Source: Dictyostelium discoideum (Eukaryota). From it: a stretch of DNA of 64,000 nt. The number at the start of each line of letters is the position of its first letter. The stretch's first letter is position 1. The notes beneath the pieces were generated by a model. The model saw nothing but the letters and a program-made list of their open reading frames with translations. It was not told the origin of the DNA and ran no database searches. Positions 47,280-58,935 of the stretch are shown here, in pieces. The position numbers were made by a program, and so were the translations under genes. The stretch lies in contig CM000151.3 of NCBI GenBank assembly GCA_000004695.1, positions 2,400,001 to 2,464,000 on the forward strand, written 5' to 3'.

Positions 47280-48933
47280 ATGGCAATTAATTATGAAATA
47301 AATGGTAATGAAATTAAAAATTTACAAACTATCACTTACAATTATAAAGAACCAATTGAAATTGATAAAGAGTTAGAATGTATGATTTGCTTATTACCAC
47401 TTTTGGAACCAGTAGTCGAACCAAATTGCAGACAAATGGTAAACTATTATAATTTTAAAAAAAAATAATGTAATGAATGTAATTTTAATAATTTTTTTTT
47501 TTTTTTTTAAAAATGTTTTTTAGTTTTGTAAAGATTGTTTAACAAATTGGTCTATTGAAAAAGGTCAAAAAGGATGTCCATATTGCCAACAATCATTTAA
47601 TATAAAATCAGTTAGTTTACCACCAAAATTTGTAACAAATACATTAGATAGTTTATTAGTTTATTGCAATACAGATGGTTGTGAATTCAATAGTAATAGT
47701 GATAGAAATCAATTAATTCGTCGTTGTGAATATAGAAATCATTTTGAAAGAATTTGTAAAGTAATATGTATTGATTGTAATCAACAATTTACAAGAGAAC
47801 AATTAAAATTACACTCAAATGAATGTACTTCAAAATCAGTTAAATGTAATGCAAGTTCATTAATGTGTTCATGGGTTGGTCCAATTAAAGAATTGCAATC
47901 ACATGAATCAAATTGTCATTACATTGCATTATCGCCAATACTCAATAAATTATATGATAAAATCCAACAATTAGATATCAGTAATCAAAAAACCACCTCA
48001 TTTTTATTAGAAAAAATAAATTATTTAGAATCAATAATTTCATCATCATCAGCATTATCAACACCAAATTTGAGTTCTCCAATTTATTATCAACCAATTC
48101 CAACTGCTCCATTACCAGACTCAACAACAATGTATGATAATAGAAATACAACCACCACAACAACCACAACAACAACAATTTCATTGGATAAAATTACACC
48201 GGTTGAAATTAAAAAAGTAGCATCAATTGAAATTTTTAAAAATAATAGTAATAAATATGTAATTGGTAAAGTTGAATCAGGTGTTAAGAGTGTATCGATT
48301 GATGGAGATTATGCAGATACATGGCCAATTGTTAAAGGTAATTTACCAAATTCAGTTGACACATTAATATTATTAGATGGATTTAAAGAATTGGTATACT
48401 CTGTTCCAAAATCAATTAAAGTACTACACATTGGTGATATTAAAAAATCACATGCATTCTATATTCAATGCAGTTCAGTTAATGAAATTCATTTTCATGA
48501 TAATTGTAAAATTAAATTCACAAAGAATGTTATACCAGATTCAGCTAAAACAGTTCACTTTTATAGAATTAATGAACCATTAACAACTGAATCAATTGGT
48601 AAGAATGTAAAATGTCTTCATATACATGATGGATTTTCAAAATCATTAGGATATGGTGTTTTACCATCATCAATTCAAGAATTACATTTATATGATATTA
48701 AAAGACAAGCATTGTCAATACCAAGCTCAATTAAAATATTATACCTTCATAATCAATTCAATAATGAATCAATTGAATTACCTGATCAACTTGAAACTCT
48801 TTATCTTGATAACATTATCCACCCAATTAAAAATTTCCCATCATCTTTAAAAACAATTCATTTAATTAATTATAAATTTGAAGATAAAGTACCATTTCCA
48901 CCAAAAGTTAAAATTATTATGGGGACAAAATAA
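47280..48933 (+). CDS. RING finger + TRAF-type zinc finger + FNIP-repeat protein (~603 aa); 2 exons
   Basis: ATG at 47280 (MAINYEINGNEIK). Exon 1 47280-47438 (donor caaatg|gtaaac, phase 0). Exon 2 47524-48933 (acceptor tttttag). The RING is split by the intron: CMICLLPLLEPVVEPNCRQM | FCKDCLTNWSIEKGQKGCPYC, with Q in the usual His position. TRAF-type zinc fingers: CEYRNHFERICKVICIDCNQQFTREQLKLHSNECTSKSVKCNASSLMCSWVG...HESNCHY. FNIP-like ~22-aa repeats: LPNSVDTLILLDGF, VPKSIKVLHIGD, IPDSAKTVHFYRIN, LPSSIQELHLYD, IPSSIKILYLHNQFN, FPSSLKTIHLINYKF. Confidence 0.65.
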
Positions 48934-49036: not shown

Positions 49037-50836
49037 TTATTTTCTTTTTTCAAGAATTACTTTGAATGGGTTTGGTTTTAATGTTAAACCATAAGTTTGA
49101 GTTTCATCAACTGGTTTACCATCAATTGATTTAAATTTGAAATTTAATATCATATTTGATAATGCAATATAAATTTCATCTTGGGCAAAATTACTTCCAC
49201 TAAATTATTAAAAATAAAAAATTAATATCTGAAAATATATACATGATAATACTCAAATCAATTAAGTAATTGAGTGAGAATATAATTTAGATACATTACA
49301 CGCAATTTCTTGGACCAATACTAAATGGCATGAAAGCTGGATTTGAATCAGAATTTAAAAATCTAGTTGGATCAAATTGATTTGGATTTTCAAAATATTC
49401 TTCATTTCTAGATAATGCATGATAATTAATTAAAATTTGAGCATTCTTTGGAATAAATTGACCATTATTTAAAATGATATCAGAGGTAGTTGATCTTGGT
49501 AAACCAAATGGTGATATTGGTTTATATCTTAATGTTTCTTTAAATAATGATACAACAAATGGTGTTGATTGTCTATCTGATAACAAAACTTTATTTCTCT
49601 GAGTTAAACCACCACCACCACCGCCACCATTTGATGATAATGCTGATTTAATTTCATTATAAGCTTTCTCTTGATATTCTGGATAATTAATTAACATCAT
49701 TACAATTAATTCTAAAGAAGTTGCAGAAGTATCAACACCAGCTAAAAAGAAATCACTAACTGTTGCAGAGATTGATAAAATTTGATCATCAGTTTCTGTA
49801 CCATATTCTTTAATCAATAGATCCATTAAGTCTCTTTGAACATCTGGTTTGTAAGTTTCTAAATGTTTATAAATTTTCATTTTACCAAAATTAATAACTT
49901 GATAATAATGACTTGTAAACCATTCTAAATATAAGAAATACAATGGTCTTGTTATCTCTAAAACATCAAATAAACTACCAGTACCGAAATCTTTGAATAC
50001 CTTTTGCATTGGTTTCATTAATTGTGCTAATTGACCATTATGCACATCTTCATCTTTGGAAATATCTTCATTGAAAATATATTTAAACATTGCTGACATT
50101 GTAAATTTGGTTAAATAATAACGTGGATCAAATGTTTCACCACTGGATTCAATGGTTCTCATCGATTCAATTAATACATCAACTTGATCATCCAATAATT
50201 GATAAATATGTTTTAAATTGGTCTTTCTCATTGCCTTACCAACAATCTCTTTATTATTTTTCCAATTATCACCCATTGATGCTACTGTACCATGATAAAA
50301 TGTTCCATGTTTTACTGACTATTTATTTTATTTTATTTATTTAATTAATTAATCTTATTTATTATTATTAAAAAAAAAAGAAATAAAAACTATTATAAAA
50401 AAAAAAAAAATTTTACATACTGGTATTTTTGGTCTGTCAATGAAATTGTCAAACTTGTCAACAAATAGCTCTCTTGCAATTATTGGATCACAAACAATAA
50501 CTGTATATAAGTCTGCTAAATAAATTCTAAAGATTTTACCATATTTTTCACTCATCTTTGTTAAATCAAAATGAGGTAAATTGGTTAACTGATAAATGTT
50601 GCCCAATATAGGAATTGGAAAAGGACCTGGTAATTGATTTTCATTTAATCTTTTATATTTTGAATACTTTTATTTTTATTTTTTTTTTTTTATTTTTTTT
50701 TTTTTTTTTTTTTGGTAGACTAACATGTTTTTTAAATTTTTTAGAAAATAAAAAAAAGAAAAAATAATAAAAAAATACTTACAGCATTATGTAAAATATA
50801 AATTAAAAATAGATACACAATGATGCCAAATATCAT
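49037..50836 (-). CDS. Cytochrome P450 (copy A of a tandem triplet), ~493 aa, 4 exons
   Basis: - strand exons 50836-50783 ([18 protein letters not shown]|gtaagt), 50666-50421 (...DRPKIP|gtatgt), 50318-49300 ([20 protein letters not shown]...FSIGPRNC(V)|gtaatg) and 49199-49037 ([10 protein letters not shown]...EKRK*). Phases 0/0/2 are consistent. ExxR ETLRYKP; PFG; heme loop [13 protein letters not shown] track: 50355-50606, 49296-50276. Confidence 0.75.
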
Positions 50837-51185
50837 TTTTTTAAAAATTGATTTTATGAAATTAAAAAAAAAAAAAAAAAAAAAAATTTAATTATAAAAT
50901 CAAAAAAAAAAACCATAAAATATGCCAAAAAAAAATAAAAAAATAAAATTAAAAAAAATAAAAATTAATTATAGTAATTTATAAATATCTTCAAAAGTAA
51001 AGATTCTTTTCAAATTGAAAAAAAAAAAAAAAACCAACCCTCTTTTTTAAAAAAAAATAAAAAAAAATCTTTATTAAATTTGAAAGTAAAAAATGAAATT
51101 CTTGAATAATAAAGTTAAATATCAAACCAATAAAAATAAGGTTATCGCGTTAACTAGTATTTTTATTAATTTTATATTTTTAATT

Positions 51186-51218
<33 letters not shown>

Positions 51219-51320
51219 TTTAATTATTTAAAAAATATATTAAAAAATTTGTTATTTCTTTTTTGAGTCACAATGAATCCTTTTTTTTGTTTTTGAAGTT
51301 AAATAGTTTTTTTTTAAATT

Positions 51321-51366
<46 letters not shown>

Positions 51367-51401
51367 TATTATTATTATAATTATTTAAATAAATATAAAA
51401 A

Positions 51402-52046
51402 TTAGATAATTCTTTTTTCAAGAGTTACATTGAATCTATTTTTAGTTTTTAGTGTGAGGCCATATTCCTCAGTTTCATCAATCTTTTTACCGTCAATTGA
51501 TTTTAATTTAAAATTTAAAAGAATATTTGAAATACAAATGTATAGCTCATCTTGAGCAAAACTTTGACCCCTATAAAAAAATAATTTAATTGATTAATTA
51601 ATTGTTTATTTTTTAATTTTTTTTAAAAATTAATTATACATACACACAACTTCTAATACCAATACTAAATGGTAAAAATGCAACATTTGATTCAACTTTT
51701 AAAAATCTTGATGGATCAAATTGTTCTGGATTTTCATAATATTCTTCATTCATTCCAAGTGCTTGATAATTAATTAAAATTTGTGCATTCTTTGGAATGA
51801 AATGACCACCAATCATACAATCCTTTGATGAAGATCTTGGTAAACCAAATGGTGACATTGGTTTATATCTTAATGTTTCTTTTATTACAGCAACTAAATA
51901 AGGTGTTGATTGTCTATCTGATAAATTAACTTTACTTCTACCATTTACAACTGTCTTTATTTCATCAAATGCTTTTTCTTGAATTTCTGGATAATTTGTT
52001 AACATCAATACCATTGATTCTAAAGCAGTTGAACTTGTATCAACAC

Positions 52047-52082
<36 letters not shown>

Positions 52083-53414
52083 AGAATATTATTTTTTTAA
52101 ATAATAATAATAATAAATACTTATAAATACAAACCTGCTAAGAAAAAATCATTAATTGTTGCCAAAATTGATAAAATTTTATCATCATTATCAGTACCAT
52201 ATTCTTTAATTAAAATATCAAGTAAATCTCTTTCAACATCTGGATCAAAGGTTTTTAAATGTTCATTATATTTCTCTCTATGATATTTCATAATATCTTT
52301 AAAACTTTGATCAAACATTTCTAAATATAAAAGATAAAGTGGTTGAGTAATATTTATGACATCAAATAAACTACCTCTACCAGCATTTTGAAAAACCTCA
52401 GACATTGGACCCATCAATTTTTGTGTATCACCTTTATTAATATCTTCATCCTCTGGAATATCATGATTGAAAAGAAATTTAAACATTGCTGACATTGTAA
52501 ATTTTGTAATATAATAACGAGTATCAAATGTTTTACCACTGGTTTCAATTGATTTCATTGATCTTATTAATACATCAACTTGTTTATCTAATAATTCATA
52601 AATATGTTTTAAATTTGTTTTTCTCATTGCTTTACCAACAATTTCTCTATTGTTTTTCCAATGTTCACCATAACTTGTAACTGTACCATGATAAAATGTT
52701 CCATGTTCAACTGACTATTTAAATTTTTAATTTTTTAAATAAAATAATTAATAATTAATAATTAATAAATAAATAATTAATAATTAATAATTAATTTTTT
52801 TTTTTTTTTTAAATTATTAATTATTTTAATTAATTATTATTATTAATTATTTATAAATTTTTTATTTTTTAAATAAAATAATTAATAATTAATAATTAAT
52901 AAATAAATAATTAATAATTAAAAAAAAAATAAATTAACACACAATTTATTAATTATTTAATTTTGATACATACTGGTTTTTTAACTCTATCGGTGAAAAT
53001 ATCAGAATTATCAACATACATTTCTCTAATTAATAATGGATCAGATACAACAACAGTGTACATGTCTGCCATATAAACCCTTAAAATATGGCCATACTTT
53101 TTAGTCATCTTTGTTAATACTCTATGAGGTAATTCTCCAAATTGATGGAGATTTCCTAAAATTGGAATTGGGGTTGGACCACATAACTCATTAACATGAA
53201 TTTTTTTATATTTTGAAATCTGATTAATTAAAATAATTATTTTAAAAATAAAAAATTAAAAAATTAAAAAATGATTATTTTTAAAAATAATAATAATAAT
53301 AATTTAGATTAATTATATTTATTTTTATTTTTTTTAATATAAAATAATAGGACTTACAGCATTATGTATAATATAAACAACAAATAATGAAATAATAATT
53401 TCAAATAAAGCCAT
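51402..53414 (-). CDS. Cytochrome P450 (copy B), 5 exons; has an intron after ...FFLAG| that copy A lacks
   Basis: - strand exons 53414-53358 ([19 protein letters not shown]), 53219-52974, 52714-52135 ([20 protein letters not shown]...DFFLAG|gtttgt), 52046-51644 ([15 protein letters not shown]...FSIGIRSCV|gtatgt) and 51570-51402 ([10 protein letters not shown]...EKRII*). The lengths 57/246/580/403/169 are frame-consistent. ORF track: 52121-52627, 51634-52014. Confidence 0.75.
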
Positions 53415-54155
53415 ATTTTTTAAATTACCACTTGTGTGCAAGTAATTTTTTTTTTTGTTTTTTTGTTTTTTTTTTTTTTTTCTTTTCAACAATTATATTT
53501 TTATTTTTTATATTTTTATTTATATTTTTAATTTTTGGTTTAAATATTTTTTTGTTTTTGTTTTTGTTTTTTTTTTTTTTTTTTTTTTTGTTCAACAACA
53601 GTTTAAAAAAAAAAAAAAAAAATAAAAAAAAAAAAATTAAAAAAAAAAAATTATTTTAATAATGTTTGAATTAAAACTGACAACATAGATGATTAACATA
53701 GTAAATCTATGAATCATAAAAATAAATTATTGTTTTCTCAACTGAGTAAGATGTCTCCTCACAATCTAATGTACAAAAAAAAAAAATAAAAAAAAATAAA
53801 AAAAATAAAAAAAATAAAAAAAAAATAAAAAATAAAAAAATAATACTAACACCATTATTAAAAAAAAAAAATTAAAAAAAAATTTTAAGATCCCCACACA
53901 TTTTCTATTCAATATGCACAAAAAATACACACACTTTTTTTCTTTTCTTTTTTTTTCTTTTTTTTTTTTTTTTTTTTTTTCATTGTTATTCTCAATTTTT
54001 GAGATTTTATAAAAAATAAAAAATAAAAAAAAAAATAAAAAAAATAATGAAAATAATAATAAAAATAATAAAAAATTATAATTTTTTTTGTATTGGGTTA
54101 AATTTGGACACAATAATATTCAATAAAATTTAATCCAATATTTACACGCTCACAG

Positions 54156-54208
<53 letters not shown>

Positions 54209-54252
54209 TTATTTATTATAATTAATTATTTTTTATTAAATTTTACAATGAA

Positions 54253-55566
54253 TTAAATTCTTTTTTTAATGGATACATTAAATTTATTCTTGCATCTTAA
54301 TGTAACTCCATACAATTCAGTTTCATCAATTTGTTTCCCATCAATTGAACTAAATTTAAAATTTAAAATTATATTTGAAAATGCAAGAAACATTTCATCT
54401 AATGCAAAATTTTGACCACTTAAAAAAAAAAAAAAAATTAATTTAACAATTTTTAAATAAATAATTAAAAAAAATAATAAAATAAATAATTTTTTTTTAC
54501 TTACACACAATTTCTTGTACCAATACTAAATGGTAAAAATGCAATATTTGTATCTGGATTCATAAATCTTGATGGTTCAAATTGTTCAGGATTTTCAAAA
54601 TAATCTTGATTTCTTGAAAGTCCATAATAATTTATAAAAATTTGAGCATCTTTTGGAATGAATTTATCACCAATTATAATATCTTGAGAAGTAGTTCTTG
54701 GTACACCAACAGAAGATGGTGGTTTATATCTTAATGTTTCTTTAATAAATGAAACTGTATATGGTGTAAATTGTCTATCAGATAATAAAACTTTATTTCT
54801 ACCGTTAACAGTTAATTTAATTTCATCATATACTTTCTCTTGAATTTCTGGATAATTAACTAACATCATAACCATATATTCTAATGAAGCACTACTTGTA
54901 TCAGTACCTATTTTAAATAAATTTATTAATAATTGAAATTTTTTAATAAAAAATAATAAAACTAATTTAATACAAACCAGCTAAAAATAAATCATTTATA
55001 GTTGCAATAATTGTTAAAATATCATCATCACTTCCACTATAATATTCTTTAATTAATAAATCTAATAAATCTCTTTGAATTTCTGGATTATAAGTTTTTA
55101 AATGTTGATGATATTTTTTTTTTAAAAAATTTAAAATTTTTGGATAATTTTTATCAGTATGTTCAATCCATTGATAATATAATGGTCTTGATATTAATAA
55201 AACATCAAATAAACTACCACTTCCTAAATCTTTGAAAACTTGTTCAATTGGCCCAATTAATTCAGATATTTCATTATTAAAATTTATTTCTTCATTGAAA
55301 ATGAATTTATACATTGCTGCCATTGTATATTTTTTAAAATAAATACGTGGTTCAAATACTTGTCCATCACTTTCAATTTTATTCATTGATTCAATTAAAT
55401 TATCAACTTGTTGATCTAATGAATCATAAATTAATTTTAAATTGGTTTTTCTCATTGCTTTATTAATTATATCTCTAATTTTTAACCAATATTCACCAGA
55501 AGATGCTTTTTTTTTTAAAAAAAAAAAAAAAAAAAAATTAATAATTAATTTTTTTTTTAGTTTTTT

Positions 55567-55603
<37 letters not shown>

Positions 55604-55917
55604 CTAACTTGCAATACCATGATAATGAGTTGCATGTCTTATTGAAGGTATTTTTGGTCTGTCTAGGAAATAATCACCATTGTTAACAAACATTTCTCTA
55701 ATCAAAATTGGATCAGATAATACAACAGTGTATAAATCAGCAAACCAAAATCTATAAATTCCACCATATTTTTCAGATATTTTAGTTAAATCTCTGTGTG
55801 GTAAACCACTTGTAAGTTGATATAAATTTCCTAAAATTGGAATTGGAATTGGTCCTTTTAATTCATTTTTATTTATTTTTTTAAATTTAATATACTGATA
55901 AAAATTGATTTAATTTC

Positions 55918-55961
<44 letters not shown>

Positions 55962-56119
55962 TATTTAAATTTTACCATATCTGTGTTTAGAAAAAAGTAT
56001 AATTATTATTATTATCCTTTTTTTTTTTTTTTTTTTATTAAAATTAAAGAAAAAATACAAACAGTATTATGGATTATATAAAAAATTATTAGAAACAATA
56101 TTAATTTTAAAAACTCCAT
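54253..56119 (-). CDS. Cytochrome P450 (copy C), 5 exons; its intron pattern differs from A and B, and exon 2 has an apparent 1-nt frameshift at ~55859-55861
   Basis: - strand exons 56119-56063 ([19 protein letters not shown]|gtttgt), 55895-55609, 55505-54978 (...FLAG|gtttgt), 54897-54495 ([16 protein letters not shown]...FSIGTRNCV|gtaagt) and 54418-54253 ([10 protein letters not shown]...KKRI*). Exon 2 reads [11 protein letters not shown] then aat gaa TTT aaa agg, where aat gaa TTa aaa gga cca ([14 protein letters not shown]) is expected; the exon is 287 nt, not 286. [18 protein letters not shown] is continuous, so there is no intron where A and B have one; instead an intron follows HGIA (gcaa|gttagt ... 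aaaag|ca). Confidence 0.6.
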
Positions 56120-56930: not shown

Positions 56931-57617
56931 TTATTTAATTGGGTCAACATCAAAAGAGCAAACTAAAAAAGTATCAAACTCTATGATTGTTGAAAGACCG
57001 TTATAATGAATATCGTTAATACCATAACGATAAATACCATGAGGAGAATTTGAAATGTTAATTCTAGTTTTCTTATAGTCAAACCATTGTTTTTGCTCCT
57101 TGTACATGTATTGATATGCTTTGGTATAAATTGCCAATAAATCCAAAGAGGAAATTGGAATGTTTGGATCAGGTTTTGTGACTTTAATAACGGATTTCTT
57201 TAATTGATATTTACCAAAAACACAATAGACATGATCCACATATCTACCAACACCATACAGGTTTTTATCCTTGTCAACGATTAATTTGTCATTAATAAAT
57301 GACTCTGTTTTTTCATTTTTTAAATTACCATTTGATTCTGATAATAGCTTATTGAATTGAATTAATTCATTCTTATTCTTTATTGGTAATGAATTACTAT
57401 CGATTGATACAATACCTTGATTTTTAATCTTCTTTTTCTTTTCATTTAATTGATTATTTAATTTATTTTGAAAATTATCAATATCATTAACATTAGATGC
57501 TGGTGATGCACAAACTGGTAATATCTCTTTATCAATTTTTTGAATTTTTGATTTTGAAATTATTTTTCTTTCATCTTCTGATGCATTATCCATATAAATT
57601 TTATTAATTTCAAACAT
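56931..57617 (-). CDS. Hypothetical protein X1 (228 aa, intronless), in a tandem pair with X2
   Basis: ORF 56931-57617. It shares a C-terminal module with ORF 58351-58935: HVYC(V/F)...IKVT(K/R)PD(P/A)N...L(D/E)LLAIY(T/S)KA(Y/F)Q(Y/F)(M/I)Y(K/E)E...HG(I/R)Y(R)YGI...YNG(L/F)S....(F/Y)..F.C.F.VD. Confidence 0.45.
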   Translation of the reverse strand: MFEINKIYMDNASEDERKIISKSKIQKIDKEILPVCASPASNVNDIDNFQNKLNNQLNEKKKKIKNQGIVSIDSNSLPIKNKNELIQFNKLLSESNGNLKNEKTESFINDKLIVDKDKNLYGVGRYVDHVYCVFGKYQLKKSVIKVTKPDPNIPISSLDLLAIYTKAYQYMYKEQKQWFDYKKTRINISNSPHGIYRYGINDIHYNGLSTIIEFDTFLVCSFDVDPIK

Positions 57618-58350: not shown

Positions 58351-58356
<6 letters not shown>

Positions 58357-58935
58357 ATCTACTCTAAATTCACAAAAAATGAAATCTTTATAGATTAAAA
58401 CATCTGAAAAACCATTGTAAACTAAATCTGAAAGATCGTGACCCCAAATTCCATATCTGCCATGAGAAACACCTCTATTAAGCATACCTTGAATGTGACC
58501 AGGATTACCTACTTCTTTTTCCTCTTCTTCATAGATGAATTGAAAAGCTTTTGAATAAATTGCTAATAATTCAACATTGGTCAAGGGTTGTAATGAATTT
58601 GCATCTGGTCTTGTTACTTTAATAGTTACAGGATTTGCAGTATAGGCATCAATGAAACAATATACATGTTTAGTATTATCACCACCTTCAATTAATACAG
58701 TCTCTTTAAATAAATCATCGTCAGTTTGATTTGGTTGATTAAATGATTCTAATCCCCATGATTTTTTAGATAATGCATCTTCTTTTAAATAATTTTTATA
58801 ATTTTCTAATGTTGTAATTTGTTTATTTGGTGCACCAATATCTTTTAAAATATTTTCTAATTTTTTAATTGGTTTTAATCCTTCTATTTCTTTTAATTCT
58901 TCTGAATTTGCATCGCGAAATAAATAATTTTCCAT
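58351..58935 (-). CDS. Hypothetical protein X2 (194 aa, intronless), tandem paralog of X1
   Basis: ORF 58351-58935 (MENYLFRDANSEELKEIEGL...). Conserved motifs as listed for X1. Same strand, ~730 bp downstream of X1's start. Confidence 0.45.

Follow-up and report, generated by a model that had tools for sequence, protein, structure and literature searches.

Intron turnover in an old tandem array of CYP508A cytochrome P450 genes of Dictyostelium discoideum

Introduction

How did three neighbouring, related genes come to carry three different sets of introns? The question was raised by a stretch of 64,000 nucleotides (nt) of Dictyostelium discoideum DNA (GenBank assembly GCA_000004695.1, contig CM000151.3, positions 2,400,001 to 2,464,000 of the forward strand; this whole stretch is called the window below), in which three cytochrome P450 (P450) genes, all complete, were found on the minus strand at 49037-56119. 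The initial annotation, made from the letters of the window, had taken them for recent tandem duplicates whose introns were lost or had slid, with gene conversion by processed cDNA as a possible cause. The genes were identified here as cyp508A2, cyp508A1 and cyp508A3 (genes A, B and C, in order of coordinate). The explanation that we regard as likely is that they are old CYP508A paralogs of a four-intron ancestor, with exact intron losses in CYP508A2 and CYP508A3 and an intron gain in CYP508A3.

Results

Gene identity and intron inventory

The exon models were assembled explicitly from GT..AG introns, and each intron site was named by the CYP508A1 residue and the phase at which it falls (e.g. 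102.0). The three genes were as follows.

49037-50836, minus strand: gene A, cyp508A2 (CYP508A2), 493 amino acids (aa), four exons (50836-50783, 50666-50421, 50318-49300, 49199-49037), intron sites 20.0, 102.0 and 429.2, PF00067 E value 3e-90
51402-53414, minus strand: gene B, cyp508A1 (CYP508A1), 484 aa, five exons (53414-53358, 53219-52974, 52714-52135, 52046-51644, 51570-51402), intron sites 20.0, 102.0, 295.1 and 429.2, PF00067 E value 8.6e-104
54253-56119, minus strand: gene C, cyp508A3 (CYP508A3), 479 aa, five exons (56119-56063, 55894-55609, 55505-54978, 54907-54505, 54418-54253), intron sites 20.0, 114.1, 295.1 and 429.2, PF00067 E value 3.3e-94

The translations were identical over their full length to proteins of D. 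discoideum AX4, namely XP_644331 ("Probable cytochrome P450 508A2") for A, XP_644330 (508A1) for B and XP_001134606 (508A3; 100% identity and coverage) for C, so the exon-intron structures derived here are those of the public annotation. The array cyp508A3 - cyp508A1 - cyp508A2 and its exon structures were therefore already known, and no sequence-level difference separates the window genes from the annotated AX4 genes. Two AX4 accessions were listed for each protein, on the 8.48-Mb chromosome record, in keeping with the known chromosome-2 duplication of AX3/AX4. Membership of CYP508A was indicated by the exact protein matches, by pairwise identities of 59-65% and by a clade bootstrap of 100%; in P450 nomenclature, members of a subfamily share more than 55% identity. 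Pfam PF00067 was matched end to end by all three proteins (304-348 bits against a cut-off of 22.8), and the heme-thiolate loop FxxGxRxCxG, the K-helix ExxR, the I-helix AGxDT and the PERF-like [DE]P[ST]RF motif were intact in each; the sequences predict membrane-anchored, heme-thiolate P450 monooxygenases.

The introns, and the exonic positions that matter for their comparison, were located as listed here.

50667-50782, minus strand: intron 1 of A, phase 0, after HNA behind the N-terminal membrane anchor, site 20.0
53220-53357 and 55895-56062, minus strand: intron 1 of B and of C, phase 0, site 20.0
50319-50420, minus strand: intron 2 of A, 102 nt, phase 0, after DRPKIP, site 102.0
52715-52973, minus strand: intron 2 of B, 259 nt, phase 0, after DRVKKP, site 102.0
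55609-55645, minus strand: 37 exonic nt of C (TCAATAAGACATGCAACTCATTATCATGGTATTGCAA) between the lost intron-2 site (55646/55645) and intron 2'
55506-55608, minus strand: intron 2' of C, 103 nt, phase 1, GTTAGT..AG, 5% G+C, site 114.1
52047-52134, minus strand: intron 3 of B, 88 nt, phase 1, in the Gly of FLAG (I-helix AGxDT), donor GTTTGT, site 295.1
54908-54977, minus strand: intron 3 of C, 70 nt, phase 1, donor GTTTGT, site 295.1
49737-49742, minus strand: empty intron-3 site of A (GCT GGT, Ala-Gly of AGVDTS), the site lying between 49739 and 49738, no indel
49200-49299, minus strand: heme-loop intron (intron 4) of A, phase 2, in the Val codon after the Cys ligand, site 429.2
51571-51643 and 54419-54504, minus strand: heme-loop intron of B and of C, phase 2, site 429.2

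The exon models, the protein alignment and the exact annotation matches bore out the initial annotation in its central observation of three minus-strand P450 genes with differing intron patterns. Its second intron, common to A and B after DR(P/V)K(I/K)P and missing from C, was recovered, as was the phase-2 heme-loop intron of all three genes in the Val codon after the heme Cys. Several details had to be adjusted when the three genomic sequences were aligned with the exon models, which otherwise gave intron presence and absence as described. The first intron is shared by all three genes, but exon 1 of C ends in HNT and not in HNA. The FLAG intron is indeed common to B and C and missing from A, but lies at phase 1 inside the Gly codon instead of after it. 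The private intron of C after HGIA exists, and is 12 codons and 1 nt (37 nt), not 16 codons, downstream of the second-intron site. The genes do not follow each other at about 2.4 kb; their start-to-start distances are 2578 and 2705 nt.

All introns of the three genes are GT..AG introns of 3-16% G+C, and retention of any of them would introduce a premature stop; for intron 2' of C, which falls inside the Thr codon following HGIA, the stop would come at codon 116. The same junctions were recovered by an independent spliced protein-to-genome aligner, even with a different paralog as query. Two products of that aligner, a 45-nt "intron" over the poly-Gly insert of A (query B) and a terminal mini-exon in a D. 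purpureum gene, were attributed to its linear gap costs and global alignment and dropped. The Logan-derived cluster member P0132 was likewise set aside as transcript evidence, being the exon-4 open reading frame from genomic DNA and not a spliced transcript.

Ancestral intron set of the CYP508A subfamily

Based on one alignment of 25 dictyostelid CYP508-like genes, introns were mapped in D. discoideum, D. citrinum, D. firmibasis, D. dimigraforme, D. purpureum, Polysphondylium violaceum and Cavenderia fasciculata, and a neighbour-joining tree was built with 500 bootstraps, support being obtained by split counting. The sites relevant to the window genes were distributed as follows.

Site 20.0 (intron 1): present in 25 of 25 genes
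Site 102.0 (intron 2): nine genes, namely the A1 and A2 orthologs, the A4-like paralog P0010 and D. purpureum DICPUDRAFT_43840
Site 114.1 (intron 2'): 4 of 4 CYP508A3 orthologs, 0 of 21 other genes
Site 295.1 (FLAG intron 3): A1 and A3 orthologs and D. purpureum 43840
Site 429.2 (heme-loop intron 4): 16 of 25 genes, one of them from P. violaceum

A bootstrap of 100% was obtained for the CYP508A clade (A1, A2, A3, A4-like and D. purpureum 43840) and for every ortholog group. Within the clade, support was 62% for A1+A2, 63% when A3 was added and 72% when A4 was added, and the split placing A3 at the base received 8%. None of the three CYP508A2 orthologs carried an intron at 295.1. Site 429.2 appears to be ancient, since it is shared as far as P. 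violaceum. The comparison with P450s of other Dictyostelium species, which the initial annotation had proposed, pointed to an ancestral CYP508A set that most likely consisted of 20.0, 102.0, 295.1 and 429.2, kept by CYP508A1 and D. purpureum 43840. By this mapping site 114.1 is derived whatever the internal order of the clade, because an ancestral 114.1 would have had to be lost six times or more, in separate lineages, and we infer that intron 2' is a lineage-specific gain in CYP508A3.

The CYP508A4-like paralog P0010 (L005 6001-7873), which comes from a different D. discoideum assembly, has lost both 295.1 and 429.2, and its private phase-2 intron at residue 72 (72.2; FADL/YTV) is a second putative gain in the subfamily. 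The grouping of the paralogs also shifted along the gene: A2+A3 received 56% for residues 20-101, and A1+A2 and A1+A3 about 42% each for residues 102-200, while the exon-2 region of A3 was up to 83% identical to the A4-like gene. Such shifts may reflect ancient ectopic conversion or uneven rates.

Age of the array

The duplicates are not recent, as the initial annotation had supposed. Protein identity was 65% between A and B, 60.5% between A and C and 59% between B and C. Nonsynonymous divergence (dN, Nei-Gojobori) was 0.25-0.29 between paralogs versus 0.03-0.10 when each gene was compared with its ortholog in D. citrinum or D. firmibasis; synonymous divergence (dS) was 0.6 versus 0.34-0.50, values compressed by codon bias. 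The C-B-A triplet was found beside the same neighbours in D. firmibasis (L001) and D. citrinum (L002), and orthologs of C and B only were found in D. dimigraforme (L003). The intron set of each ortholog was that of its D. discoideum counterpart (8 of 8 orthologs in the three sister species), and identity between species was 80-95% in exons and 15-72% in introns. On these comparisons the triplet was already in place before D. discoideum, D. citrinum, D. firmibasis and D. dimigraforme diverged. The splice models are strongly supported comparatively, because the ortholog intron sets, the contrast between exon and intron identity and the retention test agree.

Exact loss of single introns

In the nucleotide alignment of 13 CYP508A genes, the losses at 295.1 in A and at 102.0 in C were base-exact and without indel. 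Exact deletion is the prediction of recombination with reverse-transcribed spliced mRNA, and we infer that the losses in CYP508A2 and CYP508A3 arose in this way. In D. discoideum 441 precise intron losses have been reported, for which the reverse-transcription model was favoured (Ma, Che, Porceddu and Niu 2015, PMC4683709). The present losses resemble these in being exact and without flanking indels, and the A4-like paralog, outside the window, lost the adjacent 3' introns 3 and 4 together. They differ in that CYP508A2 and CYP508A3 lost single internal introns and kept 3' introns; as introns further 3' were spared, short conversion tracts must be assumed. The cDNA gene conversion put forward in the initial annotation thus fits the two base-exact losses, in agreement with the favoured published model, and leaves the intron gain of C unexplained.

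Other sources of the lost-intron alleles were considered. A loss of intron 3 copied into A2 from the A4-like gene was rejected, as A2 around residue 295 is 81-84% identical to A1 and 58-68% identical to A4. For A3, sliding-window identity gave no signal of paralog-templated conversion at residues 102-114, and the region-wise trees were inconsistent.

Gain of intron 2' next to the lost intron 2

The 37 nt of C between the lost intron-2 site and intron 2' correspond by homology to the stretch of equal length that directly follows intron 2 in A and B. Among the 13 aligned genes, this stretch lies upstream of the intron in the CYP508A3 orthologs and downstream of it in the other CYP508A genes. The gain of intron 2' was exact, with no indel; as the protein alignment has no gap, it is an insertion and not intronisation of coding sequence. 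An origin of intron 2' by tandem duplication was rejected, since the junction reads GCAA/CATC in 4 of 4 CYP508A3 orthologs, with no AG/GY and no similarity between intron and exon ends.

Sites 102.0 and 114.1 never occurred together in the 25 genes, and 114.1 was confined to the A3 ortholog group, which had 100% support. Introns 2 and 2' probably cannot coexist stably, because a 37-nt micro-exon would remain between them. Mutual exclusivity has been described for near intron pairs and put down to the rarity of exons below about 50 nt (Lehmann, Eisenhardt, Stadler and Krauss 2010, PMC2891723). The present pair resembles them in that two nearby positions, one older and one younger, exclude each other, the younger defining the monophyletic CYP508A3 orthologs. 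It differs in its distance of 37 nt, against the working cut-off of <32 nt in that paper, in the comparison of paralogs and not orthologs, and in the absence of the sliding and tandem-duplication signatures seen in Drosophila.

Order of events and rival explanations

In the course of events that we regard as likely, a common ancestor would have carried four introns, after the membrane anchor, after DRPKIP, at the I-helix Gly and after the heme Cys. All four would have been retained in CYP508A1. CYP508A2 would have undergone exact loss of the I-helix intron (295.1), and CYP508A3 exact loss of intron 2 (102.0) and acquisition of a new phase-1 intron 37 nt downstream (114.1); the A4-like gene would have lost 295.1 and 429.2 jointly and gained an intron at 72.2. 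The losses would have proceeded by recombination with reverse-transcribed spliced mRNA over short conversion tracts, and the disfavour of very short exons would have let one of two introns persist, giving a mutually exclusive near-intron pair.

Several observations weigh against this account. The branching order of A1, A2 and A3 is weak (32-63% support) and depends on the region used, and the position of D. purpureum as outgroup to A1-A4 has 72% support. Were A3 basal, intron 2 would never have been present in A3, and two gains and no loss would follow. The 3'-biased, adjacent losses typical of mRNA-mediated loss were not seen in the window, as A2 kept intron 4 and A3 kept introns 3 and 4. The exact loss in A2 could also be a microhomology genomic deletion, which is possible because intron 3 is flanked by AG/GT at both ends. 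Finally, the splice models are backed by comparisons and by being identical to the public annotation.

The loss and the gain in CYP508A3 might instead have been a single step: reverse splicing would have put intron 2 back into its own transcript 37 nt further downstream, and cDNA-mediated gene conversion would have fixed it there. Such a relocation would explain a coupled exact loss and gain within 37 nt in one lineage, would extend the cDNA idea of the initial annotation to the gain, and would suit the reverse-transcriptase-rich genome of D. discoideum (PMC4683709). We consider it unlikely: no positive evidence was found, introns this old retaining no alignable sequence, Lehmann et al. saw no support for reverse-splicing gains in their near-intron pairs (PMC2891723), and a very short conversion tract would be needed, since the flanking introns 1 and 3 were kept. 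With orthologous introns 15-72% identical in sequence of 90-95% A+T, similarity between introns 2 and 2' has no power as a test.

An ancestor with both introns around a 37-nt micro-exon, from which A3 lost intron 2 and all other genes lost intron 2', is decidedly improbable. Recurrent loss is a common event, and with few outgroups a loss is often mistaken for a gain (PMC4683709); however, 21 genes in six or more separate lineages, all outgroup clades included, lack 114.1, and no gene with both introns was found among the 25, the 37-nt exon being expected to be disfavoured.

Recent tandem duplicates with introns reshuffled by recent conversion with processed cDNA, as first proposed, deserve very little credence. 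The losses are exact and the tandem arrangement is real, but the duplicates and their patterns predate four species, the paralogs have a dN of 0.25-0.29, and conversion by cDNA cannot create an intron; the proposal is refuted on timing, because ortholog patterns, tree and dN show old paralogs.

Intron sliding, which would have left the ancestral intron 2 in its place while both of its splice sites shifted 37 nt downstream in the lineage of CYP508A3, has next to no chance of being correct. In its favour, the two positions are close and mutually exclusive, no gene of the A3 lineage without both was sampled, and sliding is often the cause of near-intron pairs in Drosophila (PMC2891723). However, it would swap 37 nt between exon and intron, and is refuted because these 37 nt are homologous coding sequence in all 13 CYP508A genes. 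The protein alignment also has no indel, and the stepwise shift described in that paper calls for a distance divisible by 3, whereas the move from phase 0 to phase 1 covers 37 nt.

The account of old paralogs with separate exact losses and a gain describes ordinary intron turnover in a known, old tandem P450 cluster, with little consequence for the genes themselves, and cDNA-mediated exact intron loss is already the accepted account for Dictyostelium. Its modest value lies in a cleanly polarised gain that is paired with the loss of a neighbour 37 nt away and dated before four sequenced species.

Turnover rate and hot spots

In nematodes, plants and insects it has long been known that introns are often lost and gained among closely related P450 paralogs, many of them in tandem. 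Differing intron sets of P450 paralogs were reportedly noted by Gotoh in 1998 for C. elegans, by Paquette et al. in 2000 for Arabidopsis and by Tijet et al. in 2001 for Drosophila. The CYP508 family was heterogeneous in the same sense, with 17 intron positions in 25 genes and one of them universal. The initial annotation had called the differing patterns uncommon, and this held in part: the rate per intron was above the genome-wide estimate, but within the family differing patterns are the rule.

The genome-wide baseline comprises 441 losses against 15,510 extant introns, and 40 putative gains (PMC4683709). For CYP508A1-A4, losses amounted to 4 of 16 ancestral introns versus 2.8% genome-wide (binomial P about 8e-4) and gains to 2 among 14 extant introns (P about 6e-4), and the three window genes alone gave P = 0.04 for losses and 0.03 for gains; these P values overstate the contrast, because PMC4683709 counted strict one-to-one orthologs with stringent outgroup support only and the paralog branches may exceed the D. 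discoideum - D. purpureum split in length.

Two hot spots of intron position, each with positions that exclude one another between paralog clades, were observed. The first comprises 295.1, 296.2, 297.0 and 299.1 within 13 nt at the I-helix AGxDT, which are mutually exclusive between CYP508-like clades. The unusual donor GTTTGT was kept at 295.1 in 8 of 9 genes and at 297.0 in 4 of 4, and the introns at these two sites flank a conserved 5-nt exonic segment, GTNNT, on opposite sides; the pair may represent short-range relocation of one homologous intron. The second comprises 96.2, 102.0, 111.1 and 114.1 within 55 nt at residues 96-114. Site 96.2 was found in D. firmibasis P0019 and in the D. purpureum gene of L008 (6414-8807, minus strand), which also has site 111.1, 9 nt away from that of CYP508A3. 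The loci were these.

L006 6001-7594: hot spot 1
L007 3930-5579, 6001-7779 and 8583-10208: hot spot 1
Window 52047-52134 and 54908-54977: hot spot 1
L008 4416-6315 and 6414-8807, minus strand: hot spot 1
L011 6976-8763, minus strand: hot spot 1
L008 6414-8807, minus strand: hot spot 2
L011 5001-6849: hot spot 2
Window 55506-55608: hot spot 2

The hot spots hint at repeated short-range relocation by a mechanism other than classical sliding, of which a one-step relocation in CYP508A3 would be a case, a doubtful proposal in our estimation. As well-supported intron gains are scarce, the pair in CYP508A3 and the two hot spots could be used in studies of intron evolution with more dictyostelid genomes.

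Literature context

No account of CYP508A intron structure or intron history was met in the literature searched, the supplementary tables of PMC4683709 lying outside that search. No function for CYP508A1-A3 was reported in the same literature, and CYP508C1, the only CYP508 member tested there, did not modify discoidol (PMC6524965).

Surroundings of the array and minor observations

The window contains about 20% G+C, with long A/T runs between genes, as in Dictyostelium. No fourth copy or fragment of the P450 trio was found in its 64 kb by tblastn, and a tRNA scan of the window returned none. The genes beside the array were as follows.

47863-48933, plus strand: FNIP-like gene converging on cyp508A2
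56931-57617 and 58351-58935, minus strand: two small paralogous genes upstream of cyp508A3, 228 and 194 aa

In D. firmibasis, D. citrinum and D. dimigraforme these neighbours stand in the same order and orientation. At the syntenic D. dimigraforme locus (L003 11870-12175) the CYP508A2 ortholog was absent and about 300 nt lay between the CYP508A1 ortholog and the FNIP-like gene, an arrangement that suggests deletion of one array member.

The deposited D. firmibasis CYP508A3 model (P0003; L001 10001-12114) has 467 aa. Homology-guided mapping gave a full model of 479 aa and an intron 2' of 375 nt; the deposited model is therefore probably mis-spliced at this long intron. In D. discoideum, the extra length of cyp508A1 intron 2 (259 nt versus 78-121 nt in its orthologs) consists of AT-rich tandem arrays with periods of 22 and 29 at 52736-52937, detected by TRF, an example of microsatellite expansion within an intron. 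The Gly-rich insert of D. discoideum CYP508A2 at 49577-49621 has a shorter counterpart in D. citrinum (SNNSDGGGS) and none in D. firmibasis, and by this comparison it is a lineage-specific expansion of a low-complexity stretch.

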